From a virus: 41,173 nucleotides of DNA. Both the position numbers and the translations under genes were made by a program. Numbering within the stretch: the stretch's first letter is position 1; each line of letters opens with the position of its first letter. This document shows, in pieces, positions 1 through 41,173 of the stretch. Below the pieces are notes generated by a model. The model saw only the letters and a list, made by a program, of their open reading frames with translations, made no database searches and was not told where the DNA came from. Location of the stretch: the IMG/VR virus record IMGVR_UViG_3300029743_000012, positions 1 through 41,173 of that record. One strand, written 5' to 3'.

Positions 1-72
1 GGAAACACTGGGGGAAACACTGGGGGAAACACTGGGGGAAACACTGGGGGAAACACTGGGGGAAACACTGGG
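1..72. repeat. Six tandem copies of the 12-bp unit GGAAACACTGGG. It is an iteron-like array and lies in frame inside the replication-initiator ORF.
   Basis: Perfect 12-mer periodicity read directly. The same unit ends the window at 41126..41173. Confidence 0.85.
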
Positions 73-396
73 GGAAATCACACCCCCGAAATAAGGGAAG
101 TAAGGGAAGTAAGGGAACATATCTCGGATAAATCCTCGATATGTGTGCCAAAGAGAAAAAATGCAACTCTCGTTCCTGATGACTGGCAGCCTGATGAAAA
201 GACAAGAAATAAACTTTTGAGCAATGGCCTTGATCCGGCCTTAGTTGCTGAGAAATTCAAAAATTCTTGTCATGCCAAGGGATTGAAGTACATCGATTTC
301 AACCGGGCTGTTTTGGCTTGGGATTGGAGCCGGGATCCTGCCGTAAAACGAAAATCTCCCCAAGATGACCCGTTCTATGTCGAATGGCCGGTATAG
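1..396 (+). CDS. Replication initiator protein, C-terminal part. This is the continuation of ORF 40772..41173 across the window boundary.
   Basis: Position 1 is in the same frame as listed ORF 145..396, with no stop from 1 to 396. The 3' repeat ORF ends on a complete codon at 41173. The gene leads directly into the DnaB helicase gene. This resembles the lambda-O arrangement, where iterons sit within the initiator gene. Confidence 0.5.
   Translation, partial: GNTGGNTGGNTGGNTGGNTGGNTGGNHTPEIREVREVREHISDKSSICVPKRKNATLVPDDWQPDEKTRNKLLSNGLDPALVAEKFKNSCHAKGLKYIDFNRAVLAWDWSRDPAVKRKSPQDDPFYVEWPV
93..119. repeat. Three copies of a 9-bp tandem repeat, TAAGGGAAG, immediately downstream of the iteron array
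   Basis: TAAGGGAAG TAAGGGAAG TAAGGGAAC read directly. It is in frame within the rep ORF and encodes (I)REVREVRE. Confidence 0.6.
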
Positions 397-405
397 GAGG
401 GGAGT

Positions 406-1698
406 ATGACTGAGGAGCAGTTGAGAACAGACCGGGAACGCGAGTTAATTTCCCGTTTGCTGAACAAACCAAAATTGCTGCCGCTTGTTTCAGATTCTGT
501 GAAACCGGAATATTTTGCGGATGATTTTTGCCGTAAAGTTTTCGCTGAAATGCTCAAACAAGGTAAATTCAGCAGGATTTCTTTGGAAAAAAACGGCTTT
601 GATCGTCGTTTGATGGTTTTGCTTGAGGGAGAAACGGTTACCTGTTGTACAACCCGGAGTCAGATTGAAGCGGCCGCGTGGATGGTTGTAGAGCACTACA
701 AACAGGCGGAATTGCGCCGTTCAATGGCGGAAATGCAAAGTGACGGTAATGTCGATTTGCAAAAATTGCAAAGCCGCATTGCCGAGCTTAATTTGCTGAA
801 TCCGGAAAAGGCAGAAACGGAAAATTCGGTTGAGGATGTATTTGTTAAGGCTGATCGTTTGTATCGCGGGGAAGCGGATCCGCGTAATCTGCCGACCGGG
901 TTTGCGTCTATCGACGGCCGGATTGAAGGCGTGCAAAACTCCGAGCTGGTAATTATCGGCGGGCGCCCGGGATCAGGAAAAACGACAATTGCCGTAAACA
1001 TTGCGGTAAATCAGGCAAAGCGGGGTAAAAAGATTTTGTTCTTTTCTCTGGAAATGGCAAAATCTGAACTGATCGAAAGGATAGTCATTTCGTTGACCGG
1101 CAACCGTGTTTCTCCGCGGATGTCTCCGGCAGAAATTAACCGCTGGTTGGAATGTGTCCGTTATGTCGAACGGTTGCCGTTGACTATTAACGACAAGGCC
1201 GGGATGACGGTTGAAGGAATTTATTCAGCAGCGCTCAAAAAAAAGGACAGAGAGGGGCTGGATGCCGTTTTTATCGATAATTTGAGCATTTTGAAATCGT
1301 CCAGAATTTTCAAAAACCGTTACGAAGAGGTAAGCGAGATCAGCCGTCAGTTGAAAGTGATGGCCAAAGATTTGGACGTGCCGGTTGTCTGCCTGAGCCA
1401 GCTGAACCGTGCCCTGGAAGCGCGTACCATGAAAGCGCCGACTTTGGCCGATTTACGGGACAGCGGAAGCATTGAGCAGGATGCGGACATGATCGCGTTT
1501 GTTTACCGGCCGGAATATCATCTGGCGCAAGCAGAGCCCGATGACAAAATGTCGGCAGAGTATTCCCGATGGCTTGGAACCATGGAGAAAATACGCGGTA
1601 AATGTGTTTTTATTGTAGCAAAAAATCGACGAGGAGAGTTGGCTAACATCGAACTGAAGTTTAACGGTTATCAATATAGATTTACGGAGGCGGCATGA
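406..1698 (+). CDS. dnaB: DnaB-family replicative DNA helicase
   Basis: Walker A motif IIGGRPGSGKTT. The SLEM motif is present (FFSLEMAKSEL), as is the CLSQLNR motif. A DnaB N-terminal domain precedes them. GGAGG RBS before ATG 406. Confidence 0.9.
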   Translation: MTEEQLRTDRERELISRLLNKPKLLPLVSDSVKPEYFADDFCRKVFAEMLKQGKFSRISLEKNGFDRRLMVLLEGETVTCCTTRSQIEAAAWMVVEHYKQAELRRSMAEMQSDGNVDLQKLQSRIAELNLLNPEKAETENSVEDVFVKADRLYRGEADPRNLPTGFASIDGRIEGVQNSELVIIGGRPGSGKTTIAVNIAVNQAKRGKKILFFSLEMAKSELIERIVISLTGNRVSPRMSPAEINRWLECVRYVERLPLTINDKAGMTVEGIYSAALKKKDREGLDAVFIDNLSILKSSRIFKNRYEEVSEISRQLKVMAKDLDVPVVCLSQLNRALEARTMKAPTLADLRDSGSIEQDADMIAFVYRPEYHLAQAEPDDKMSAEYSRWLGTMEKIRGKCVFIVAKNRRGELANIELKFNGYQYRFTEAA

Positions 1699-1794
1699 CA
1701 AAAACGGAAGAAGACAATTTCAAATCTCTTGGGGAAGTCTTGGGAAATGTTTTGGAGAAAATTAAACCGACAGGGCGAAGAAAGTAGGTGCGTG

Positions 1795-2151
1795 ATGAGC
1801 AAACAGGGGATTTTTGATAAGTTGCTTGCCCAAACGGAAATCTGTGCAGGTGTTGGCCGTAAAGACATTCTGGGTGAGAGCCGGCTGAAAAATATCGTTG
1901 CCGCCCGCAAGATATTCTGGGTGGCGCTAAGAATGGCGGGTTTTACACTCACCGCTATCGGCAACCGGGTCGGGCGGGAACATTCAACCGTTGCGAGGGA
2001 AACAAAATTTGCCCCCGCCAATTTGAAAGACAAGGCCGCCGCCTGTTGCCTGTTGTGCGGAGAGCGCCGGCAATATGAGTTTCACAAACAAATTATCCGG
2101 AGGGTTCCGGATTACAAAAACAACTGCACAAAGTGGGTGGAGGGGGCTTAA
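1795..2151 (+). CDS. DnaA C-terminal (domain IV)-like helix-turn-helix DNA-binding protein
   Basis: DILGESRLKNIVAARKIFWVALRMAGFTLTAIGNRVGREHSTV aligns with the DnaA domain IV pattern (SRSVARPRQMAMALAKELT..IG..FGGRDHTTV). The start is uncertain: TTG at 1729, ATG at 1747 or ATG at 1795. AGGTG lies 4 nt before 1795. Confidence 0.55.
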   Translation: MSKQGIFDKLLAQTEICAGVGRKDILGESRLKNIVAARKIFWVALRMAGFTLTAIGNRVGREHSTVARETKFAPANLKDKAAACCLLCGERRQYEFHKQIIRRVPDYKNNCTKWVEGA

Positions 2152-2154
2152 ACA

Positions 2155-2646
2155 ATGACGGATGAGGCAAAAACGGAACTGGCAAAATGCCGCCGCAAAG
2201 GCTGGCTTGATTTTGGCGACAAGACATACAGCGCCGATGACAGAATGCACGCCGGGGAAAAGCTGGCGGCAGATTTTTTCGAGGCCGGTTTTGCTTTAAC
2301 CCTGGCGCTGGACTACGCCAAGCCGAGGGTAGACAACAGCCGCCGCTCTGATTTGCCAGAACGGGTTTATGATGCTCAGAACAGATATCTGCGGGCAATG
2401 GCTTGTCTGACATCCGGACAGGCTTTCACCGTCCGTACTATTTGCTGTATGGACAAGGCGGTGAAAATTCCTTTCATCCACAAGGCACAGTACGTTCATG
2501 AACTCGAGCTGATGAAGCACGAGCTGTGCGGGGGGCTGGACAGGCTGTGCGCGCACTACTGGGGCAAGCCGTCGGCATCGGACCGGCGGAAGATAGCCGG
2601 TTTTTCTACCGTAAACTTCTGGGACGGGTTCGATGATTGTTATTAA
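2155..2646 (+). CDS. Hypothetical protein
   Basis: 163-aa ORF that follows the preceding gene in operon-like fashion. I recognised no motif. Confidence 0.45.
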   Translation: MTDEAKTELAKCRRKGWLDFGDKTYSADDRMHAGEKLAADFFEAGFALTLALDYAKPRVDNSRRSDLPERVYDAQNRYLRAMACLTSGQAFTVRTICCMDKAVKIPFIHKAQYVHELELMKHELCGGLDRLCAHYWGKPSASDRRKIAGFSTVNFWDGFDDCY

Positions 2647-2662
2647 AAATCAAGCCCACCGG

Positions 2663-3184
2663 TCAATCCGGCAGGCTTCTGTTGTACTCGTAAAACAAAA
2701 CGGCGGCTTTCTTCAGCGCTTCTTTCAGCTGCTCTTTTGTCGCCGGATCTATCGTTTGTATGATGTTAACATATTCCGGCGTTTCCTCCCCGGCTATGGC
2801 GTCGAGAGAATACGACATAAAAGGAAATTCTCTATTCCCGACGACGGCGATAAATCGGGGATAATGAAGACGGATAATATATTCCCCTCCCGCTCCGAAT
2901 TCGTCGCCAAAAACATATTCCGGGATGAATTTATAAAACCCCGGGTCATCCATGCTTACCCCCTGCGAAATGTACTGCATCACTTTTTGCGCGACGCCTG
3001 AAGGGGTGCTGTCCCCGGCTTCCCACATTCTCACGGTGCGCCCGTGGTTGTCGTTTTCCGTATTGAGCCCGACGACAGCGCCAAAGCCCCGGGCGGAAAG
3101 CCCGAGTTCTTTGCGCAGTTTTTTGACGTTTTCCGGCTTTGAAAAGTCAAAGCTTTTTTCATCCTCTTCCATCATATTCACCAT
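2663..3184 (-). CDS. XRE-family HTH DNA-binding protein (candidate repressor or antitoxin) with a C-terminal domain of unknown function
   Basis: N-terminal KLRKELGLSARGFGAVVGLN..RTVRMWEAG is a typical XRE helix-turn-helix. The gene is transcribed leftward from the 3442..3640 regulatory region. Confidence 0.6.
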   Translation of the reverse strand: MVNMMEEDEKSFDFSKPENVKKLRKELGLSARGFGAVVGLNTENDNHGRTVRMWEAGDSTPSGVAQKVMQYISQGVSMDDPGFYKFIPEYVFGDEFGAGGEYIIRLHYPRFIAVVGNREFPFMSYSLDAIAGEETPEYVNIIQTIDPATKEQLKEALKKAAVLFYEYNRSLPD

Positions 3185-3441
3185 TAAAATTTTGCCAAAA
3201 ATTCTTCAACAGTCATTTCGCCGTATTTTTCAACAAATGCGGTAACGGTTGCGTTGCGTTCGTCGAGCGCTTTTTTTGCGCGAGCGGTGTCAACCGCTTC
3301 ACCCATGCCGGCATAGTGCAGGCAGGCGGTGGCGTCGCGGTACTTTTGCGCGTCTGCTCCGGCCAGCTGGCGGATAAGGCCGCAGCCGTTTCCGGTAGTG
3401 GGAAGGTTTTTGATTAAAGTTTTCAGCGTTGATTTTTTCAT
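3184..3441 (-). CDS. Hypothetical protein, upstream partner of the HTH gene
   Basis: 85-aa ORF with an AAGGAG RBS. Its stop overlaps the HTH start (ATGA). Confidence 0.5.
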   Translation of the reverse strand: MKKSTLKTLIKNLPTTGNGCGLIRQLAGADAQKYRDATACLHYAGMGEAVDTARAKKALDERNATVTAFVEKYGEMTVEEFLAKF

Positions 3442-3494
3442 TTTCTTTCTCCTTAAATGGCGGGGCGCTGCCCCTGTGGTTTGTTTATACCTGT

Positions 3495-3523
3495 AGTGTA
3501 GGTAATTATTTCCTACCCGTCAA
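3495..3523 (-). promoter_or_regulatory. Leftward sigma70-like promoter. On the minus strand it reads TTGACG, a 16-nt spacer, then TACACT. It overlaps the palindrome GTAGGTAATTATTTCCTAC.
   Basis: Read directly. The 19-bp inverted repeat at 3498..3516 sits between the -35 and -10 elements, as expected for an operator. Confidence 0.4.
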
Positions 3524-3596
3524 CACTTTTTTCAAAAAATATCATTTTTTATAAAATTATGCAAAAACAATGGGTTATATAATGTAAAAAAAGTAC

Positions 3597-3637
3597 TTGA
3601 CAACTTTTCGAAAAGTTGGTACAAATATTGTCATACT
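3597..3637 (+). promoter_or_regulatory. Rightward promoter. TTGACA is followed by the perfect 18-bp palindrome CAACTTTTCGAAAAGTTG and a TACAAA/CATACT -10 candidate.
   Basis: TTGACA at 3597..3602 and the palindrome at 3601..3618, read directly. Confidence 0.45.
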
Positions 3638-3699
3638 GGATAATAGGCTCTAAAAAAGACTAACACCAGTTAAAAGCCGGATAGCGTGAACTGCTTTCC

Positions 3700-3905
3700 G
3701 GTTTTTTTATGACCAAAACCAACCCCTGGTTATGGTCGCCGCAACTTTCTCCGGAGTCGCGGCTCTTCTTTTTTCTGCCGGTTTTTTCATTTTCCGGCAG
3801 TTTGCCCGCCTGGCCGCCTTTATACCTCCTTCAGCGGCGGCGGGCTCCTCCCGCTGCTTTTATGGCAGCGCCCCGAGGCATGGGCTGTTATAAAAACGCT
3901 CCTAT
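3700..3905. other. Structured, GC-rich non-coding region upstream of the terminase genes. Candidate cos/pac site.
   Basis: Several perfect hairpins: CTGCCGG-n12-CCGGCAG and GCTGC-n7-GCAGC. T-runs are present. The listed ORF 3709..3912 has no RBS and a low-complexity translation. The position is immediately 5' of terS. Confidence 0.3.
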
Positions 3906-4328
3906 TTGTTGATTACGCAAAAGCTCATCGCCCTGGGTTTTTATAAAGCACGAGATATGTACGACAATTTGATTAAAAATAACCGTTTAACGCCGGATGA
4001 ACGCCGGAAAAATGCGCGAAAAGCGGGAAAAGCAAGTGGCAAAGCCCGTCGCGAAAGAAAGGAACTTAAAAAAGAGCTCCTTTTGCTCTTGAAAAGCGGT
4101 GATATTCAGGAAAAAATCTGCACCGCGCTTATAGAAAAAGCGCAAAGCGGCGATGTTAAGGCTTTTGAAGTCATCCGGGACACAATCGGGGAAAAGCCGG
4201 TTGATAAGCTGGCGCACACAGACAGCGAAGGTAAAGACATAGCCCCCGCCGTCGTATCAAACTCCGAGCTGTTGGCTATTATGGAGAGACGAATTGAACG
4301 AATCGATGCGCCAAAATCTTCAGACTGA
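3906..4328 (+). CDS. Terminase small subunit (putative)
   Basis: Basic, Lys/Arg-rich region (RRKNARKAGKASGKARRERKE) directly upstream of, and overlapping, the large terminase gene. The start is uncertain: TTG at 3906 or ATG at 3957. Confidence 0.5.
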   Translation: MLITQKLIALGFYKARDMYDNLIKNNRLTPDERRKNARKAGKASGKARRERKELKKELLLLLKSGDIQEKICTALIEKAQSGDVKAFEVIRDTIGEKPVDKLAHTDSEGKDIAPAVVSNSELLAIMERRIERIDAPKSSD

Positions 4329-5715
4329 TTTTTATCTGTTTTATCTTTACATTAACGAAGATTTGCGCGGCGCCGACGGTTTCCGCACCGGTAAATGGGA
4401 AGAAGAGCTGTGCGACTTCTTTCAATACCGACTGTATTATAAATTTCTAAAAGGTGAGCGTCCTATTGCCACCTGCGAAGAGCCGGTACAGCATGGCAAA
4501 AGCACAAAGCTGCGTATATTCACCGCGTGGCTGATAGGGCGGCACGGTGATTTGAAGTTTAACTTCTACACAAGCTCTGACGACCTGCGCGACAAAACGC
4601 AGGCGGAGGTTTTGAACATTTTGCAGGGGGCACGTTATAAGTCGGTATTTGGCAACGTGATAAAGAAAGCCAATGCCTCAACCGTCTGGTTTAAGAAAGG
4701 CGGACAGATCGATTACAGGCTTATGGGTGAGGGAAATACCGGTTATCCGTCCCACATCTCAATTATTGACGATCCGTACAGAAACGCTGAGGATGCTCTG
4801 TCGCCCACTATCCGCGCCAAGGTAGAGAACCGGTTCCGCGGCGATATTATGAGCCGCCGGCAAAACAACACGATGGTTCTGGTGCTGCATTCCCGCTGGC
4901 ATACTCAGGATCTGATCGGAATGCTTAAAACAGATCCTTATTTTAAGGATAAAATCATATCAAGCCGACATCCGGCGATAGATAAAAATGGCAACGCTCT
5001 TTTCCCGGAGTTCCGCAGCATTGATTTTTTGCGGGAACAGGAGAAAGCGCTCGGGTCTGCAAATTTTGCGGCGTTATATCAGCAGGAGCCGATTATTGAA
5101 GGCGGCAATCTGATAAAGACAAGCCAGATGCAGCGCTATGATATATGTCCGGCGCAGTTTGACAGCCTGTTTATCGTTGCCGATACGGCTTTTTCGGAAA
5201 AAAAATCCGCTGACAATTCGGCGTTCGGACTTTTCGGAACAAAAGGCAAAGACCTTTATATGTTGGACGGCTACTCGAAAAAAGTCATCTTCCCGGATTT
5301 AAGGCGGGATTTGAAGAGCTTTTTTGAGAAAGCCAAAACATATGCGAGCAGTCCGTTTTCCGCAATTTACATTGAAAACAAAGGTTCCGGCATATCTCTG
5401 ATCCAGCAGTTGCGAGAAGAAGGCCTGCCGATAAGAGAGCTGCAGCCGACTGTTCACAATGCGGAACTGAAGAAAGACCAGGTTGCCGATAAGTATTTGA
5501 GATTTAACGAGGTGGCCGCCGATTTGGAAAGCGGCTATTTTCATATCCCGGCATCCGCACCGTGGCTGCTTGAGTTCTTGAGCGAGTGTGAGGCTTTTAC
5601 CGGGGGCAAACAGGACGCGCACGACGACTATTGCGATGTTCTGATCTATGCTTTGAAAATCAGGCGCAAAGCTCAAACTCCTGACTGGGGCGAGCTGATG
5701 CGCATAATGGGGTAG
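4294..5715 (+). CDS. Terminase large subunit
   Basis: ATPase-like N-terminus (EEPVQHGKSTKL). C-terminal nuclease-like acidic motifs are present (LFIVADTAFSEKKSADNSAFGL and DAHDDYCDVLIYAL). TTG start with a GGAGAG RBS. Confidence 0.8.
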   Translation: MNESMRQNLQTDFYLFYLYINEDLRGADGFRTGKWEEELCDFFQYRLYYKFLKGERPIATCEEPVQHGKSTKLRIFTAWLIGRHGDLKFNFYTSSDDLRDKTQAEVLNILQGARYKSVFGNVIKKANASTVWFKKGGQIDYRLMGEGNTGYPSHISIIDDPYRNAEDALSPTIRAKVENRFRGDIMSRRQNNTMVLVLHSRWHTQDLIGMLKTDPYFKDKIISSRHPAIDKNGNALFPEFRSIDFLREQEKALGSANFAALYQQEPIIEGGNLIKTSQMQRYDICPAQFDSLFIVADTAFSEKKSADNSAFGLFGTKGKDLYMLDGYSKKVIFPDLRRDLKSFFEKAKTYASSPFSAIYIENKGSGISLIQQLREEGLPIRELQPTVHNAELKKDQVADKYLRFNEVAADLESGYFHIPASAPWLLEFLSECEAFTGGKQDAHDDYCDVLIYALKIRRKAQTPDWGELMRIMG

Positions 5716-5719
5716 ATTT

Positions 5720-8116
5720 ATGTTTCGTTTTTTCAAAAGAAAACAGGAAAAAAAAGCGGCCGACAATTTCGCTCTTCTTGCCAATATGTTAAAAGAAGAA
5801 CAGGCGGCATCCATATCCGAGCCGTGGACATTGGCAAAAGCACGCCTTGAGGGCGGCGCGAAAGACGCCGGAGCCGGTAAAGGGCTGAGGATGTATAATG
5901 CCCACTTGTCCCGGCTGCAAAATCAATGGATCAACCCCTTGCAGTCGGTCAATTCCGGTTACGGCACCGCGCACGCATCATTGTTTTTGTATCAGCCGGT
6001 TAACTATTATGAGTGCTACTCACTGGCGCAAGATCCGTTGTTTGCCAAGGTTTTTAACGTTTTGAGCGAAACTCCGTTTGCCAAAGGCGGGGAGTTGTCG
6101 AATCTGTCGGCAGAGGAAAAAGACAGAGCAGAAGAAGCGGCTTCCCGTTTTGACCTGTGGCAGCATCTTCGCGCCGCTGTCCGGTCAAATTATGTAACCG
6201 GCGGTTGCCTGCTTTATATGGACTTCGGGCTTTCGGGGCGGGAATTGGAAGAACCGCTTGACTTAAACCGGATGGATATGAAGCGTTTCCGCGGTTTTCG
6301 CCACATAGACCCGATCAACTGCGTTGCCGTGCAGGTTAACACGGTTAATCCGGCGGCCGGAGACTATATGCAGCCTTCAATTTGGTACGTCATCGGTCTG
6401 GGGGCGGTTCATAGAAGCCATTTTCTTAAGTTTGAAGCGAACATCCCGGAATTGCCGATGCGTCCGCTGACGTTGTATTTCGGTATGCCGTTGACGCAGC
6501 TCATCAAGCAGGATGTCGCCAACTCAAATTTGGCAAGTCAGGGTCTGGCAAACCTGATGAACCGTTTTCGCTTTACCTACCTGAAGGCGGATGAGAGTTC
6601 TTTTACGACCGAAAACGCCAAATGCTTTAAGGACAGGCTGAATTTTATGTCGTTTGTGCAGGACAACTTCGGTGTTTGTCCGATCAAGACGACGGAAGAC
6701 GTTATGCAGCTGACAACCAGCCTTGCCGGTATGGCGGAAAACGTCGAAGAATTCTATTTGCTGATTTCCGCCAAAACGGATATTCCTTATACGGAGCTGA
6801 TGGGCAAATCGGCCGAAGGTATGAACGCTACCGGTTCGGGCGACCGCCGCAAATGGTATGACAAATGCCGCAGCATTCAGGAATCAGTAAAAAATAATCT
6901 GCTGTTTATGTATGGCATTGTTGCCGGGGTTGACAGCGGGAAGTTTGTCAAATTTACGGACTTCACCTTTAACCCGTTGGAAGAGGCAACGGAAAAAGAG
7001 CTTGCGGAAAATATCAAGTCGTATGCCGAGGTAGCGAGTGCGCTTGTCAACCTTGGAGCAAAGCAGGATGAAGTCTTTGAGTGGTTAAAACAGTTTAAGC
7101 AGTTTAACCTTGACGGTTTGTCGTTTGATACCGAAACGGAAGGTCTCGGCGGCTATGAGGACATCACGCCGCAGGTTATGTCAGAGTTTCAGGCAATGAA
7201 CTGGGTTGACAATCCGAAGTCGTGGATAACGATGAAGTCGCAGCCGGTTCCGTTGGCAGAAGGCGACACCCCCCGTGATGCGGCAAAACGGTTTTTGGAA
7301 GAAAAGGGGCGTACGTTCAAAGAGCGTGACGGTGGAGAAAAGACTGAGGAACCAAGAGAGGAAAAAATCCCCGATATTTCTCAGTACTCTAAAAAGGATT
7401 TGCAAAGATTAAAAGACAGAAACTTTGAATTATACCAAAAAGTTGTGGAAAAAGCGGCGAGGGATTCTCGCGAAGGGGACGAACGTTTTGCAAAAGGCGG
7501 TTTTGAACTTGTTAAAGAAACGACAAAAGCTTACCAGCTCCAAAAGTCCGGGAAAACGTTTTGGATTCAAAAACGTTGGCTCAAAGAAGACGGAAGCCTG
7601 ACCCCTGCGGGCCAACAGGCTTTTGAGGAGGCAAAAACCGACGAAGAGAAAAAGCAGGCCAAAGAAGAATATATCAAGCGGAGAAAAGAGGGCGTCAAGC
7701 GTCCGGCAAAAGCGGATTGGGAATCCGACAAAGCTTATGGCTATGATATAAATCTTGATTTTTACGACATCGAGAAGGACATAAGGCACCGGATTTTCAT
7801 TCCCAAGTCCGTTATCCAGCCGAACGGAAATATTCCGACGTGGCTTATGGAGAAGAAACTTGAGGAAATAGAAGAGAAATATCCGCATTCAAAATACGGG
7901 GGCTTCTCAATAGACCGGCATCCGTTTGAGGATTATTCTTTTGGCTTTAAGGATTGGAGCCGGCTCGGGCCGAGTGAAGATAGTGAAGAGCCGCCATCAG
8001 ATAATAAAGCGCAAAATTCCGCGTCAATGGTTGTTTATTCCGTCCAAAATAACATCCTTTGTAAATCCTGTGACAACGGGGAAACGTGGGAAAATTGTGA
8101 GGAGTCCGGTTTATGA
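5720..8116 (+). CDS. Portal protein carrying a ~300-aa C-terminal extension of unknown function
   Basis: It sits directly after terL, is 798 aa long, and has a portal-like core. The extension is highly charged (KE-rich) followed by a Cys-containing tail. Confidence 0.6.
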   Translation: MFRFFKRKQEKKAADNFALLANMLKEEQAASISEPWTLAKARLEGGAKDAGAGKGLRMYNAHLSRLQNQWINPLQSVNSGYGTAHASLFLYQPVNYYECYSLAQDPLFAKVFNVLSETPFAKGGELSNLSAEEKDRAEEAASRFDLWQHLRAAVRSNYVTGGCLLYMDFGLSGRELEEPLDLNRMDMKRFRGFRHIDPINCVAVQVNTVNPAAGDYMQPSIWYVIGLGAVHRSHFLKFEANIPELPMRPLTLYFGMPLTQLIKQDVANSNLASQGLANLMNRFRFTYLKADESSFTTENAKCFKDRLNFMSFVQDNFGVCPIKTTEDVMQLTTSLAGMAENVEEFYLLISAKTDIPYTELMGKSAEGMNATGSGDRRKWYDKCRSIQESVKNNLLFMYGIVAGVDSGKFVKFTDFTFNPLEEATEKELAENIKSYAEVASALVNLGAKQDEVFEWLKQFKQFNLDGLSFDTETEGLGGYEDITPQVMSEFQAMNWVDNPKSWITMKSQPVPLAEGDTPRDAAKRFLEEKGRTFKERDGGEKTEEPREEKIPDISQYSKKDLQRLKDRNFELYQKVVEKAARDSREGDERFAKGGFELVKETTKAYQLQKSGKTFWIQKRWLKEDGSLTPAGQQAFEEAKTDEEKKQAKEEYIKRRKEGVKRPAKADWESDKAYGYDINLDFYDIEKDIRHRIFIPKSVIQPNGNIPTWLMEKKLEEIEEKYPHSKYGGFSIDRHPFEDYSFGFKDWSRLGPSEDSEEPPSDNKAQNSASMVVYSVQNNILCKSCDNGETWENCEESGL

Positions 8117-28938: not shown

Positions 28939-29697
28939 ATGAAAGATTTAATAGGAAAGAAATTTGGTAGATTAATCATTTTAAATTGTTACATGAAAAA
29001 TTATAAAAGATATTGTTTATGCTTGTGTGATTGTGGCAATAAAAAAGAGATAAGAGCCGACCATATAAGAAATGGACGAACAAAAAGCTGCGGTTGTCTT
29101 TCAAAGGAGCTATTAAAAAAGAGGCAAACAACACACGGAGAAAGCAAAACAAGACTTTATAGGATATGGGATGGCATGAAAAAAAGGTGTAGACCTAACT
29201 CTAAAAATAAATATTATTATGAAAAAGGCATAAAGGTATGTGAAGATTGGAAAGATTTTAATAACTTTAAAGAATGGGCTGAAAATAACGGATATAAAGA
29301 AAATTTAACTATCGATAGAATTGATTGTAATGACGATTATTGTCCTGAAAATTGCAGGTGGGCAACATATAAACAACAAGCGAGGAATACATCTTTTAAT
29401 AGAATGGTAGAATTTGATGGAAAAAGCAAGTGTGCCTCCGAAGTAGCTGAAATTTTAAATATAAAACAATCAACTTTTTTAGGAAGATTAAATAAAAATA
29501 AAGAATATTTGTTTTACAAATACAATAAAAGTAAAAAATATATAGCCTATCATGGTGAAGTTTTATCCATAAGTGAATGGGTTAGAAAGTTAGGCATAAA
29601 TAATTCTTCTTTTTATTATCATATCAGGAGGGGGAAAAGTGCGGAGGATACTATCAATCATTTTATGCTTAAGCTCATGCGCGCCGGCCGGCTATAG
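28939..29697 (+). CDS. HNH-type homing endonuclease-like protein with Cys-cluster and AP2-like regions. An AT-rich insertion.
   Basis: N-terminal GRLIIL...CLCLCDCGN...SCGC, then YRIWDGMKKRC...GIKVCEDW...IDRID...CPENCRWAT. GC content is far lower than the flanking sequence. Confidence 0.55.
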   Translation: MKDLIGKKFGRLIILNCYMKNYKRYCLCLCDCGNKKEIRADHIRNGRTKSCGCLSKELLKKRQTTHGESKTRLYRIWDGMKKRCRPNSKNKYYYEKGIKVCEDWKDFNNFKEWAENNGYKENLTIDRIDCNDDYCPENCRWATYKQQARNTSFNRMVEFDGKSKCASEVAEILNIKQSTFLGRLNKNKEYLFYKYNKSKKYIAYHGEVLSISEWVRKLGINNSSFYYHIRRGKSAEDTINHFMLKLMRAGRL

Positions 29698-33057: not shown

Positions 33058-33453
33058 TTAATCCTCGTCTTGTTCCTCGCCAATATATACAACTTCAATA
33101 AAACTGGTGGCAACATCGTCAACGTCCCAATCACAAGTTGAAACCTTATCTATTGCCAACTTTTTCGCCTCTTCTTTGTTGTCTGTATTAACGGTAATAG
33201 TTGCACTAACATCCGCCGTTGCGTTTAGGTAAACCGAGAATCTCCGCTTTTTCGTTATTTCGCGCCCCATAGGCTCTTCGTAGAGTTCCCAATCATCCGC
33301 TGTTATTTCGTTAGGCTTAATAAAATAAACATCGCCATATTCATCTTTTGCGTAAACTCCAGATAGTTTAATATACTTTCCGTCTCTCCAATCCTTTCTT
33401 CTAATCTTAGCCCCTTTTTTGAACTCGGGCAGAAGTTCTTCTAAATACGACAT
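33058..33453 (-). CDS. DUF2829-like (Tad2-like N-terminal motif) protein with an extra C-terminal domain. Paralog 2.
   Basis: MSYLEELLPEFKKGAKIRRKDW at the N-terminus. Start taken at the internal ATG, 5 nt after the upstream gene's stop. Confidence 0.4.
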   Translation of the reverse strand: MSYLEELLPEFKKGAKIRRKDWRDGKYIKLSGVYAKDEYGDVYFIKPNEITADDWELYEEPMGREITKKRRFSVYLNATADVSATITVNTDNKEEAKKLAIDKVSTCDWDVDDVATSFIEVVYIGEEQDED

Positions 33454-33457
33454 TGTT

Positions 33458-33679
33458 CTAAATCCTTTCCATGTCATAAAAAGCACCGGTTACTGTACCG
33501 ATTAACCACAGAGCGTTAACGTTCCATGTCGCGGTTTCTGCTTCGTTTCGAATCTCATTTAAAGCCTTAAGAGCAATCTTCAGCTTTTTCTCAAGCTCAA
33601 TTTCTTGCTTGGTCTTAAAGCCTGCTTTGCCGCAGTCTATATTCGTAAGCCCGCAGGTCGGGCAAATAAAATTACTCAT
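33458..33679 (-). CDS. Small CxxC...C zinc-ribbon protein. Paralog of 30176..30421.
   Basis: MSNFICPTCGLTNIDCGKAGFKTKQEIELEKKL. Confidence 0.5.
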   Translation of the reverse strand: MSNFICPTCGLTNIDCGKAGFKTKQEIELEKKLKIALKALNEIRNEAETATWNVNALWLIGTVTGAFYDMERI

Positions 33680-38126: not shown

Positions 38127-38345
38127 ATGACACTTAAAGAATATTTGCAGAAACAAAATAAAAATATGTACGAAGCGGCGCGAGAGCTTAATTTTCACCC
38201 AAATGATGTGCGGCGATATGCTATCGGAGAAATTATTCCCCGTGCTGAGCGGGTAAAGAAAATTTATGAATGGAGTGGCGGACTGGTTACCGCCAACGAT
38301 TTCTACTTTTCCAACGAAAACGGGGGAGCGAAAGAAAAAATATGA
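38127..38345 (+). CDS. Cro/YdaS-like HTH regulator
   Basis: YEAARELNFHPNDVRRYAIGEIIPRAERVKKIYEWSGGLVTANDFY fits the YdaS/Cro-like pattern. The GGAGG RBS has its last G at the ATG. Confidence 0.55.
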   Translation: MTLKEYLQKQNKNMYEAARELNFHPNDVRRYAIGEIIPRAERVKKIYEWSGGLVTANDFYFSNENGGAKEKI

Positions 38346-39679
38346 AACAATACGGAATGCCATACATGGGAAGCAAATCAAAGATTGCCGAAGATATTGT
38401 GGAATTTTTGCCAAGTGGCAAACGTTTTGTCGACCTTTTCGGCGGGGGCGGGGCTATGAGCCATTGCGCCGCTTTGTCCGGAAAATATGAAACGGTTTAT
38501 TATAATGAAATAAACCCGCTTGTTGTTGATTGTTTCTGTAAAGCGATTGCCGGGGAATATAAAAACGAAACGCGGTGGATAAGCCGTGAGGACTTTAAAA
38601 ACCTTAAAAATGTTGACGGATATGTAAAGCTCTGCTGGAGCTTTGGGAATAAAGGGGATTGCTATCTTTATGCGAAAGAAATTGAGCCCTGGAAAAAAGC
38701 TTTACACTATGCCCGAGTTTTAGGCGATTGCAGCCTATTAAAAGAATTTGGCATTGATTCAAACGGCAGCAGGCAGGATATAAAAACCAACAAAGATGAA
38801 TACAAAGAAAAATATATAAAATGGTATTTGAAAAATATATGCCTATCAGATGCCGATTTTAACTGCCTTAAAAACGATTTGGATAAAAAGATAAAAGACC
38901 AGAAAGAAGAACTGCGGCAATATTTGTGCAACGCGTTGAAAGAATCGGGCTTAACGGCGGCGGAAGTTGACCGGCGGTTAAACACACAGATGTCCAAGCA
39001 TTACTTCGGGCGTTCGCAGTGGGCGTTTCCTACCCGTGAAGAATATAATAAAATGCGCGCTTTTATGCCGCTTAAGCCTTATGACGAGGTTTACGGTTAT
39101 CAAGAGTTGCTGGAAAGTCTGCAAAGTCTGCAAAGGCTGGAAAGGCTGGAAAGGCAGCAAAGTCTGGAAAGGCTGCAAAAAAGTCTGGAAAGTCTGGAAA
39201 GGCTGGAAAGTCTGCAAAGTCTGCAAAGGCTGGAAAGGCTGCAAAGTCTGGAAAGGCTGGCTAACTTTGGAAAGATACAAATAAATTGCGGCTCTTATTG
39301 GGATTATGAGTATAAGGACGGCGACGTTGTTTACTGCGACCCTCCGTACGAGGGAACAGCCGGTTATAATGAAAATGTTATGATCAGAATTGAAAAATAT
39401 TTTGGTGAGAATGGAAGACTATATTTTTCTAAACAAAAAGCAGCCGCTTTCGATTCAAAGGCTTTTTACAACTGGGTCGCCGCCGCTCCATTTCCGGTTT
39501 ATTTTTCAAGCTACGAAATAAGCGATAGCCGTTTTTATCCGCTTTGGCAAAAAGAGAAAGCGCAGCTCTTAAGCGGACAAGGGAGTGGTAAAAAGAAGCT
39601 GGAAATAATCTATTCAAACCACCCTTGTCCCCCGTGTGGAACGGTGCAAATGATGTTATTCCCGGAGGCCGCGCAATGA
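38342..39679 (+). CDS. Dam-type (D12 class) N6-adenine DNA methyltransferase carrying an in-frame 9-bp tandem-repeat insertion
   Basis: Motif I MPYMGSKSKIAEDIVEFLP...FVDLFGGGGA. Motif IV VYCDPPY. About 17 copies of CTG[G/C]AAAG[G/T] at 39108..39263 encode the LES/LQS/LER/LQR tract. Confidence 0.7.
   Translation: MKQYGMPYMGSKSKIAEDIVEFLPSGKRFVDLFGGGGAMSHCAALSGKYETVYYNEINPLVVDCFCKAIAGEYKNETRWISREDFKNLKNVDGYVKLCWSFGNKGDCYLYAKEIEPWKKALHYARVLGDCSLLKEFGIDSNGSRQDIKTNKDEYKEKYIKWYLKNICLSDADFNCLKNDLDKKIKDQKEELRQYLCNALKESGLTAAEVDRRLNTQMSKHYFGRSQWAFPTREEYNKMRAFMPLKPYDEVYGYQELLESLQSLQRLERLERQQSLERLQKSLESLERLESLQSLQRLERLQSLERLANFGKIQINCGSYWDYEYKDGDVVYCDPPYEGTAGYNENVMIRIEKYFGENGRLYFSKQKAAAFDSKAFYNWVAAAPFPVYFSSYEISDSRFYPLWQKEKAQLLSGQGSGKKKLEIIYSNHPCPPCGTVQMMLFPEAAQ
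39108..39263 (+). repeat. 9-bp tandem repeat tract (~17 units of CTGGAAAGG / CTGCAAAGT) inside the methyltransferase gene
   Basis: Read directly. The frame is preserved because the unit is a multiple of 3. Confidence 0.85.
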
Positions 39680-40241: not shown

Positions 40242-40549
40242 TGAAAAAGTGCAGCGCATGTGGCATGGCAAAAGATGAAAGCTGTTTTGCAAGTAAAAAT
40301 CACTACTGCCGAAATTGTCAGGCAGAGATGTATAAGTTGGGCTTAAAAGCGACGGAATACCGAACATATCTGACTAAACAGCCAAAAATTGAGAACACCT
40401 GCGGCGGGATTGTTGCCCGCTGGGTGAAGTATACCAAGCCGGGGGAAAGCAAGTGGAGCATTGAGAACACGGTAACCGACTCGCACCGGTTCGGCGACGA
40501 TAAACAGGAATTTTTGAGCGTTTTGAAAAATCAACTGGCAGGGGAGTAG
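40238..40549 (+). CDS. Hypothetical Cys-rich (zinc-finger-like) protein
   Basis: CSACG...CRNC motifs. Confidence 0.4.
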   Translation: MMKKCSACGMAKDESCFASKNHYCRNCQAEMYKLGLKATEYRTYLTKQPKIENTCGGIVARWVKYTKPGESKWSIENTVTDSHRFGDDKQEFLSVLKNQLAGE

Positions 40550-40554
40550 GGAAG

Positions 40555-40788
40555 ATGAGATACGATAAAGCACTTTGGGATATATTAAAGGAAATTGATG
40601 ATATTGAAGACCCAACTTTTGAATTTCTTGCAAGTTGTTTTTCTTACTGCTTAGCGAAAGGTGGACTTACAGATAAGCAAGCCAAGATAATTGATAAATA
40701 TATTGATAAGTATCGTTATCTTTGGTCTGAGTCTAATAAAAACGAACTAAAATTAATTGAAGGAGGTAAAAATGCAGCCATCAATTAG
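40555..40788 (+). CDS. Hypothetical protein (77 aa)
   Basis: ORF. Its end overlaps the start of the rep gene. Confidence 0.4.
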   Translation: MRYDKALWDILKEIDDIEDPTFEFLASCFSYCLAKGGLTDKQAKIIDKYIDKYRYLWSESNKNELKLIEGGKNAAIN

Positions 40789-41173
40789 TTTTGGTATCAA
40801 TGATTGGCGAAATCAGCTGCTTGACCTTGACTGTACTTGTCAAGTTAAGTGTATAGCTTATACGTTATCTATGCATTGGAGAGAAGGGAAACGTTGTTAT
40901 CCTTCTCAAAGAGTTCTCGCCGAGGAGGCTGGGGTTGACCCGAAGACAGTTCGAAAAGCTCTTAATTTTCTGGAAGAAGTCGGACTGATTAAAAGAAAAA
41001 AGCTTAAAATAAAAGCTCTTTCTTTTGATCTGTGCGAATATGAGTTTTTCGGTGTGGACACTGAGGGAAACACTGAGGGAAACACTGAGGGAAACACTGA
41101 GGGAAACACTGAGGGAAACACTGAGGGAAACACTGGGGGAAACACTGGGGGAAACACTGGGGGAAACACTGGG
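40772..41173 (+). CDS. Replication initiator protein, N-terminal part, with a winged-helix-like DNA-binding region. It runs into the iteron array and continues at 1..396.
   Basis: GGAGG RBS 5 nt before the ATG. YPSQRVLAEEAGVDPKTVRKALNFLEEVGLI is HTH/winged-helix-like. The ORF is open to the last base of the window on a complete codon. Confidence 0.5.
   Translation, partial: MQPSISFGINDWRNQLLDLDCTCQVKCIAYTLSMHWREGKRCYPSQRVLAEEAGVDPKTVRKALNFLEEVGLIKRKKLKIKALSFDLCEYEFFGVDTEGNTEGNTEGNTEGNTEGNTEGNTGGNTGGNTGGNTG
41066..41173. repeat. 12-bp tandem repeat array, iteron-like: 5 copies of GGAAACACTGAG followed by 4 copies of GGAAACACTGGG, in phase with the array at 1..72
   Basis: Read directly. It encodes the TEGN/TGGN repeat within the rep ORF. 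Confidence 0.85.

Follow-up and report, generated by a model that had tools for sequence, protein, structure and literature searches.

A putative lambda-type replication origin of 12-bp repeats inside the initiator gene of an uncultured tailed phage

The replication origin of phage lambda sits in the middle of the initiator gene O (PMC7466680, PMC3349717), and Stx phages carry six iterons there against lambda's four, which adds 13 residues to the O protein (PMC7466680). Read directly, the lambda origin consists of four 18-bp iterons, a purine- and AT-rich stretch of ca. 40 bp, and then a 28-bp palindrome, GTCAGAGAATTC-tggc-GAATCCTCTGAC (12+4+12). In phage P22, the initiator gene 18 is followed by gene 12 encoding the phage's own DnaB-family helicase, and the origin has been reported inside the initiator gene. 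Here we describe a locus of this kind in IMG/VR record IMGVR_UViG_3300029743_000012 (positions 1 to 41,173; "the window" below means this whole stretch of 41,173 nucleotides), in which a replication initiator gene is split between the two ends and carries an array of 12-bp repeats in the part that encodes its linker. We propose that this linker-coding DNA is a putative replication origin that is laid out like the one of lambda and would work through the N-terminal domain of the initiator, the iterons, and a helicase, a reading to which we assign a probability of roughly 0.7. Origins within initiator genes are a design already known from lambda, and the window is a fresh example of it.

Both halves of the gene can be read at the ends of the window. 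An ATG at 40772 opens a frame that runs to the final base on a complete codon and resumes in frame at 1-396 (49-396 once a 48-nt overlap of the two ends is removed), with frame 1 open from base 1 until a TAG at 394-396. The joined open reading frame (ORF) thus comprises 265 aa untrimmed or 249 aa with the overlap removed and contains no stop codon at the junction. The elements of the locus are the following:

40762-40766, plus strand: GGAGG ribosome-binding site, 5 nt upstream of the initiator ATG (read directly)
40772-41173, plus strand: 5' part of the initiator gene, 402 nt or 134 complete codons, from the ATG at 40772 to the final base
40772-41056, plus strand: N-terminal winged-helix DNA-binding domain (N-domain), aa 1-95, Pfam HTH_36
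41054-41065, plus strand: degenerate first unit GTGGACACTGAG of the array (read directly; every relative has GTGGACACTGRG there)
41066-41125, plus strand: five 12-bp units GGAAACACTGAG, peptide GNTE, putative iterons of class "a" (pattern count and Tandem Repeats Finder, TRF)
41126-41173, plus strand: four 12-bp units GGAAACACTGGG, peptide GNTG, putative iterons of class "g", identical to window positions 1-48
1-72, plus strand: six 12-bp units GGAAACACTGGG, the first four possibly the same DNA as 41126-41173
73-84, plus strand: degenerate last unit GGAAATCACACC and end of the array, with an identical closing sequence in every relative
88-117, plus strand: spacer of purine-rich 9-bp repeats, GAARTAAGG x3.3, i.e., TAAGGGAAG x2 and then TAAGGGAAC, peptide EIREVREVRE (TRF)
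117-144: 28-nt imperfect palindrome ACATATC-TC-GGA-TAAA-TCC-TC-GATATGT, peptide HISDKSSIC
160-396, plus strand: C-terminal domain (C-domain) VPDDWQP...KFKNSCHAKGLKYIDF...WDWS with the TAG at 394-396 (modelled with AlphaFold2, AF2; conserved in relatives)
406-1698, plus strand: DnaB-type replicative helicase gene, 9 nt past the initiator stop (Pfam DnaB_C 4.6e-73, phrog_19 5.4e-83)

Much of this had been noticed in an earlier reading of the letters alone (below, the sequence-only reading), and direct reading and pattern counts bore out its ribosome-binding site, both halves of the open frame, the helicase gene after them, the two unit classes ending in GAG and GGG, and the repeat counts at both ends (GGAAACACTGAG x5 and GGAAACACTGGG x4 on the right, GGAAACACTGGG x6 on the left). 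The threefold repeat that it had seen after the array is present and was refined to the 9-bp element given above, while the degenerate first and last units are additions to its description. Its further suggestion of a single ORF in a circular genome that had been opened within the array is now supported by related contigs. An intact initiator (P0001 or a copy of it; 224 aa and 99% identical to the joined protein outside the repeats) is encoded in the middle of contigs L001, L002, and L010, each time between one and the same pair of neighbours, a 77-aa ORF and a 430-aa DnaB helicase, and the junction is bridged in six contigs from different samples that continue from window positions 40532-41154 directly into 1-1797 at 98-99.6% identity (blastn). 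Because of these intact relatives and bridging contigs, the ends of the window are, as judged by sequence comparison, neighbours in the real molecule, and the window by the same measure represents a tailed-phage genome of ~41 kb in circularly permuted form. The linear contig is opened inside the 12-bp array because assemblers fail to resolve it, and four further contigs (L011, L024, L027, and L029) begin or end inside the same array. The helicase gene directly follows the initiator also in L001, L002, L003, L009, L013, and L014.

That the joined gene encodes a replication initiator, as the sequence-only reading had proposed, is supported by both profile and structure comparisons. The winged-helix-like segment which it had pointed out is matched by HTH_36 (PF13730) at aa 38-73 with 4.7e-8 and 33.2 bits against a gathering cut-off of 25, and the same family is matched by 24/24 N-domain relatives tested (best 1.3e-15). 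AF2 models the N-domain as helix, helix, helix-turn-helix, and beta-hairpin wing, with block means of the predicted local distance difference test (pLDDT) of ~80-92 over most of it. In the AF2 model of P0001, a confident winged helix (aa 5-95) and a C-domain of three helices (aa 148-210, pLDDT ~94) are separated by a linker with pLDDT <50 (aa 98-144). The PHROG "replication initiation protein" (phrog_1032) matches aa 40-222 across the junction at 2.5e-13, several "replication initiation O-like" PHROGs match as well (phrog_678 at 3e-9, 345, 391, and 8540), and phrog_186, "DnaD-like helicase loader", matches the HTH region only at 9.1e-8, all of these names being annotations. Among viral models in BFVD, the structural matches include a 92%-identical "HTH domain protein" of 244 aa from an uncultured siphovirus and, more remotely, "replication protein O" (phage Min27), "replication initiator protein", and "replisome organizer". 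The C-domain is conserved in at least 24 proteins with unrelated N-domains; it has no sequence match in Pfam or the PDB and none among the listed Foldseek PDB matches, and a relative of this domain alone was found in one "uncultured proteobacterium" metagenome-assembled genome in a second scan of genome contigs, after a first scan had returned nothing.

The gene had also been called lambda-O-like, which holds for its architecture and probable mechanism but not for its sequence family. Membership in the lambda O family was rejected since a profile of 24 N-domains reaches only 1.3% probability against lambda O (hhalign), Phage_rep_O (PF04492) does not match the joined protein at E up to 1, and there is no P-type loader partner: the next gene is the DnaB_C helicase rather than a counterpart of lambda P, and none of the ORFs scanned looked like a loader gene. 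Phage_rep_O was weakly matched by 1/24 family members (0.0012). A DnaD-like or plasmid RepA/RP-C/RepL initiator was rejected as well, there being no profile match above cut-off: RepL reached 15.8 bits vs 20.3 (E 0.0099, HTH only), alongside weaker winged-helix families, RP-C reached 14.5 bits vs 24.4, and DnaD_N gave weak matches in only 5/24 relatives. The profile check of RepA, lambda O, and DnaD families that the sequence-only reading had suggested is thus positive for the O-like PHROGs and negative, for the window protein, with Phage_rep_O, RepL, RP-C, and DnaD_N. Among 50,697 phage records, the joined protein had no tblastn match, and blastn of window 1-8000 gave one trivial match.

The domain architecture of the initiator, i.e., an N-terminal DNA-binding domain, a flexible linker, and a C-terminal domain, follows the lambda-type pattern, and the iteron-like repeats sit within the linker-coding DNA as at least 12 contiguous units (41054-41173 plus 1-84). 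From this layout we infer an order of head-to-tail 12-bp iterons GGAAACACTGRG, the purine-rich spacer with its 9-bp repeats, and the 28-nt palindrome, which may be able to extrude as a hairpin or cruciform. The winged-helix N-domain would bind head to tail with about one copy per 12-bp unit and so build a nucleoprotein filament on the array. This filament would strain the adjacent spacer and palindrome and thereby cause opening or extrusion, after which the C-domain would recruit the replicative helicase, most simply the phage's own DnaB-type enzyme.

The 12-bp units are contiguous throughout and lie on the plus strand only, with TRF scores of 207 and 154 for the two halves of the array. The exact motif is absent from the rest of the window, and variants with up to two mismatches occur there six times vs a chance expectation of 5.2. 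Written in blocks, the array reads A-aaaaa-gggg at the right end and gggggg at the left, and the final 48 nt of the window equal the initial 48 nt entirely within the array. It therefore counts at least 12 units: 12 if the overlap represents the same DNA read twice, and 16 if the two stretches are distinct. A uniform run of GGG units cannot be counted once it is longer than the assembler's k-mer. The caution of the sequence-only reading that copy number might be inflated by assembly overlap was thus justified, and a repeat count from a short-read assembly like this one is not trustworthy. The number of units was therefore compared in near-identical genes whose array lies fully inside a contig, with the degenerate first unit included:

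L009 and L025: 3 units
L028: 4 units
L001 and L002: 5 units
L010 and L026: 6 units
L023: 8 units
L022: 15 units

The order of GAG and GGG units varies between these loci as well, e.g., G-aaag-aaag-aaag-ag in L022. Each unit equals four codons and keeps the frame, so we propose that the array is free to vary in length: slippage or unequal recombination would alter only the length of the disordered linker. L009 is a 3-kb contig in which a 5'-truncated initiator (177 aa from M34) is fused to unrelated GC-rich upstream DNA, with only 3 units and two 9-mers at 100-210; it may be what is left of a rearranged locus or else an assembly chimera.

The repeat period, though not the repeated peptide, is a property of the whole family. 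A search with the N-domain only among 1.84 billion representative proteins returned 134 members at E up to 1e-3, of which 40 representatives were analysed. In 37 of these, the 40 residues after the N-domain repeat best at a period of 4 or 8 aa (12 or 24 bp), with a mean self-match over the 40 of 0.31 at period 4 and 0.27 at period 8 compared to 0.05-0.09 elsewhere, and 28/40 surpass at least 99% of shuffles in periodicity. The peptide itself is lineage-specific (GEVT, GELT, SDGK, NGAT, DTSN, EPSI, or GGLD). A fixed 12-bp period with a free peptide points to a DNA site matched to the domain rather than to random slippage of a linker. The repeats occupy the same position in all relatives examined, including five other lineages with the same N-domain that carry 12-bp tandem arrays at this place, and the units of the six lineages can be aligned. 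In our own comparison, the window unit ACTGAGGGAAAC shares 8/12 bases with that of L012. The units of the five lineages are:

L003: AGTGATAGTAAA
L012: AGTGATGGTAAA
L013 and L014: AGYGAYGGTMAA
L015: AGTAATGGTGCA
L035: ACTGGTGAAGTA x6

Relatives that share the C-domain but carry a different N-domain have another motif at this position. When the N-domain is of the DUF6291 type, the position of the array is occupied by GGTCAAA x5-7 at irregular spacing, which falls in two reading frames (GGT-CAA and G-GTC-AAA) and therefore cannot be a peptide repeat. From the fixed period and this exchange of motifs we infer that the repeat acts at the DNA level and travels with the N-domain. In the DUF6291-type initiators (L020 2144-2743, L033 412-1023, L016, and L018), GGTCAAA is followed by a run of (G/A)GAAAC hexamers and then by the same palindrome core, and the window unit itself begins with GGAAAC. 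A third N-domain type (MAWFK...) in L019 (2150-2785) is followed by GAGAACAATCC x3-4, a clear AT-rich stretch, and then the palindrome TACCCTC-taac-GAGGGTA, so that this locus displays the lambda order of elements in its plainest form.

The modularity goes both ways. Searching the family by a profile made from a repeat-less alignment, we found the one N-domain paired with at least three types of C-domain (the window type, that of P0028 and P0029, and that of P0040) and the one C-domain paired with unrelated N-domains (DUF6291, the MAWFK type, and a MNKSYFS type). The O proteins of lambdoid phages are modular in a similar way, with the N-terminal part setting origin specificity.

Behind the array, the spacer (88-117) is a 30-mer of 60% A+T and 87% purine, and 0.024% of the genome's 30-mers reach 90% purine or more. 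Its 9-bp element is present in 1-4 copies in all relatives with the window's type of N-domain, and its position corresponds to the AT-rich region of lambda. The A+T content of the spacer is weaker than that of lambda's AT-rich stretch, while the purine-strand bias is similar in the lambda sequence. The sequence-only reading had suggested looking for an AT-rich unwinding element next to 73-144; a purine-rich and mildly AT-rich spacer is indeed there, but it does not stand out as a clear unwinding element, its stability being only slightly lowered. Of the 30-mers around the putative origin, the one richest in A+T (40683-40715, AAGATAATTGATAAATATATTGATAAGTAT) contains TTGATAA x3 with a 12-bp TRF match at 40690-40713. 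It sits within the 77-aa ORF that precedes the initiator, ~60 nt short of the ATG, and overlaps a promoter-like match at 40662-40691.

The palindrome at 117-144 is conserved in an unusual manner. Across eight lineages with three types of N-domain and two types of C-domain, the core is constant, while the outer arms vary yet stay complementary. Pairing is kept in 94.2% of cells, changes on both sides are seen in 10/13 pairs (24 cells), and there is one G-U. None of 500 shuffles match the observed values, and slid controls pair in 18-52%. As single-stranded DNA, either strand folds with z-scores of -2.5 to -7.4. Since the covariation is almost purely Watson-Crick, it argues for a palindrome that acts as a DNA rather than an RNA element. 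Two more specific ideas were dropped. The similar fold energies of the top and bottom strands did not bear out a strand preference of the hairpin or tandem G-A pairs on the bottom strand, and a DnaA link through TTATCC in the palindrome core (the first six bases of a DnaA box) was given up since relatives without a DnaA-like gene keep the palindrome. The window does contain a 140-aa ORF after the helicase gene (1729-2151, plus strand) with a helix-turn-helix like that of DnaA domain IV (Pfam Bac_DnaA_C 5.2e-9). A scan of IMG/VR for the 14-mer palindrome core gave 119 matches that are almost all due to chance, with complementary arms only in two relatives that were already known, and Rfam has nothing at the junction.

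Because the palindrome accompanies three or more unrelated N-domains and two or more different C-domains, it could be read, as a tentative idea that we hold to be rather doubtful, as a portable origin core (TC-GGA-TAAA-TCC-TC with freely covarying arms) next to which the array would be a hypervariable landing pad. A hairpin or cruciform would then be recognised by its structure, through helicase, primase, or a host factor and independently of the initiator, while the length of the array (3 to at least 15 units) might tune firing or help to evade defences that sense the origin.

Several observations weigh against the array being the origin proposed here. The spacer is only about one standard deviation less stable than the genome mean, with no clear unwinding element, and the 30-mer with the highest A+T content in the vicinity is found ~370 bp upstream of the array. 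The range from 3 to at least 15 units among near-identical genes is unusually loose for a functional set of iterons, and the units of the window lineage are so nearly identical that recent slippage alone could account for it; they also keep one reading frame, which makes a cause at the peptide level formally possible in this lineage. On the side of the protein, the Foldseek PDB matches of the N-domain are generic winged-helix regulators, homology to lambda O is lacking as described above, and in L012, which has the same C-domain, the next gene (3681-4334) is an unannotated 217-aa ORF instead of DnaB, so that the partner of the C-domain may be something other than the phage helicase.

Some of these points would fit the array being a slippage-prone in-frame microsatellite that encodes a flexible TEGN/TGGN linker and has no DNA-binding role, with the true origin elsewhere, e.g., in the palindrome alone or in the AT-rich TTGATAA repeats at 40683-40715. 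We consider this unlikely. It would explain the loose copy number (3-15 in genes that are ~99% identical outside the repeats), the near-identical units as the result of recent expansion, the predicted disorder of the encoded segment, and why the array is not AT-rich and its motif occurs nowhere else in the genome; the methyltransferase gene of the same genome even contains a second in-frame repeat (9 bp x16.6). However, a 4- or 8-residue period that persists after the same domain in 37/40 diverged representatives while the peptide changes is not what random slippage would leave behind, in relatives with another N-domain the position of the array is taken by another motif that occurs in two reading frames, and array, spacer, and palindrome follow each other in the order of the lambda origin. 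A role at the RNA level, i.e., repeats and palindrome as mRNA structures that control translation or stability of the initiator/helicase transcript, seems improbable to us. The elements are transcribed within an ORF, the palindrome folds as a single strand too, and transcription through the origin matters for initiation in lambda (PMC3017604), but 24 double changes vs one G-U speak more for a palindrome in DNA than for a helix in RNA, neither strand folds better than the other, the palindrome is not trailed by a T-run, and no Rfam family matches the junction.

It is barely conceivable that the two half-ORFs are separate parts of a linear element, be it a prophage in host DNA or a molecule with physical terminal repeats. 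A 48-nt terminal repeat built of a tandem repeat is by itself weak evidence for circularity, but a linear element is contradicted by the six independent contigs that join 40532-41154 to 1-1797 and by the intact 224-aa protein encoded in mid-contig, and the breaks of four other contigs inside the array are what an assembly break predicts. Neither end of the window has a host-like flank, which the sequence-only reading had named as the sign of a prophage, and the window has a complete complement of structural, replication, and early genes.

The remaining genes of the window are those of a tailed phage and comprise terminase, portal, capsid, DUF3383 (sheath-like), baseplate J, and tail fibre, with early genes on the opposite strand. 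The other tandem repeat that keeps the reading frame, GCTGGAAAG x16.6, has a super-period of 27 bp and spans 39109-39260 inside a 469-aa ORF for a D12-class N6-adenine methyltransferase (38270-39679). An Rfam int-alpA RNA (RF02996; 28851-28916, plus strand; 40 bits vs a gathering score of 35.8) lies just upstream of an ORF at 28939-29697 (252 aa, without an integrase domain), and no integrase was seen among the ORFs scanned. A 142-aa ORF at 33058-33486 on the minus strand weakly resembles Tad2 (anti-Thoeris), with 7.7e-5 and a sub-threshold 23.6 bits vs a cut-off of 25.

For the interpretation of metagenomic phage contigs, the window is a case in which a complete circular permutation carries a direct terminal repeat that is made of a tandem repeat, and in which ORF callers cannot see the initiator gene, since its two parts lie at opposite contig ends. 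It adds an uncultured lineage, found in human-associated and other metagenomes and unmatched in the 50,697 phage records, to the phages with a putative origin in the initiator gene. Such origins could be predicted from a simple signature in which HTH_36 is followed by a repeat of 4-residue (12-bp) period, then by a spacer rich in purines, and finally by a palindrome. Of the side results, the most interesting are the 12-bp period across the family, the hypervariable number of units, and the palindrome with its covarying arms, which is common to initiators with unrelated domains. With this palindrome, the role that the element plays in lambda-type origins becomes accessible to comparative tests.

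Of all described systems, lambda O with its origin (and likewise Stx phages 933W and P27) resembles the window most in its layout: the origin lies in the linker-coding middle of the initiator gene, iterons are followed by a purine- and AT-rich stretch and a 28-bp palindrome in the same order and with the same palindrome size, and the number of iterons differs among relatives and alters the length of the protein. The lambda iterons, in contrast, are 18-bp inverted repeats with spacers, whereas the units of the window are 12 bp long, follow one another head-to-tail without gaps, and lack an internal palindrome. The window family also varies far more in copy number (3 to at least 15), the spacer has just 60% A+T, there is no detectable sequence homology, and the gene downstream encodes a DnaB-type helicase instead of the loader P. 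In this last feature the window resembles P22, which also has its own DnaB-type helicase and no P-like loader. In SPP1, the origin-binding protein gp38 binds direct repeats of oriL within its own gene, next to an AT-rich unwinding element, and the phage encodes the DnaB-family helicase gp40 (PMC6316719). This likeness is one of description only, and SPP1 differs from the window by a separate loader, gp39, and a second origin, oriR. For P1, the origin oriL has been postulated inside the coding sequence of the initiator RepL and was examined by synonymous recoding (PMC9948254). The RepL match of the window protein is sub-threshold and limited to the HTH, and no tandem 12-bp array has been described for P1. 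Short iterons of 11 or 12 bp are known from chromosome II of Vibrio cholerae. Both there and in iteron plasmids, repeated sites for winged-helix initiators (RepA, RepE, or Pi) lie beside an unwinding region (PMC4980987, PMC3401445) as we propose for the window. Those iterons, however, are intergenic, stable in number, and used for copy-number control by handcuffing, while the array of the window is coding, contiguous, and hypervariable.

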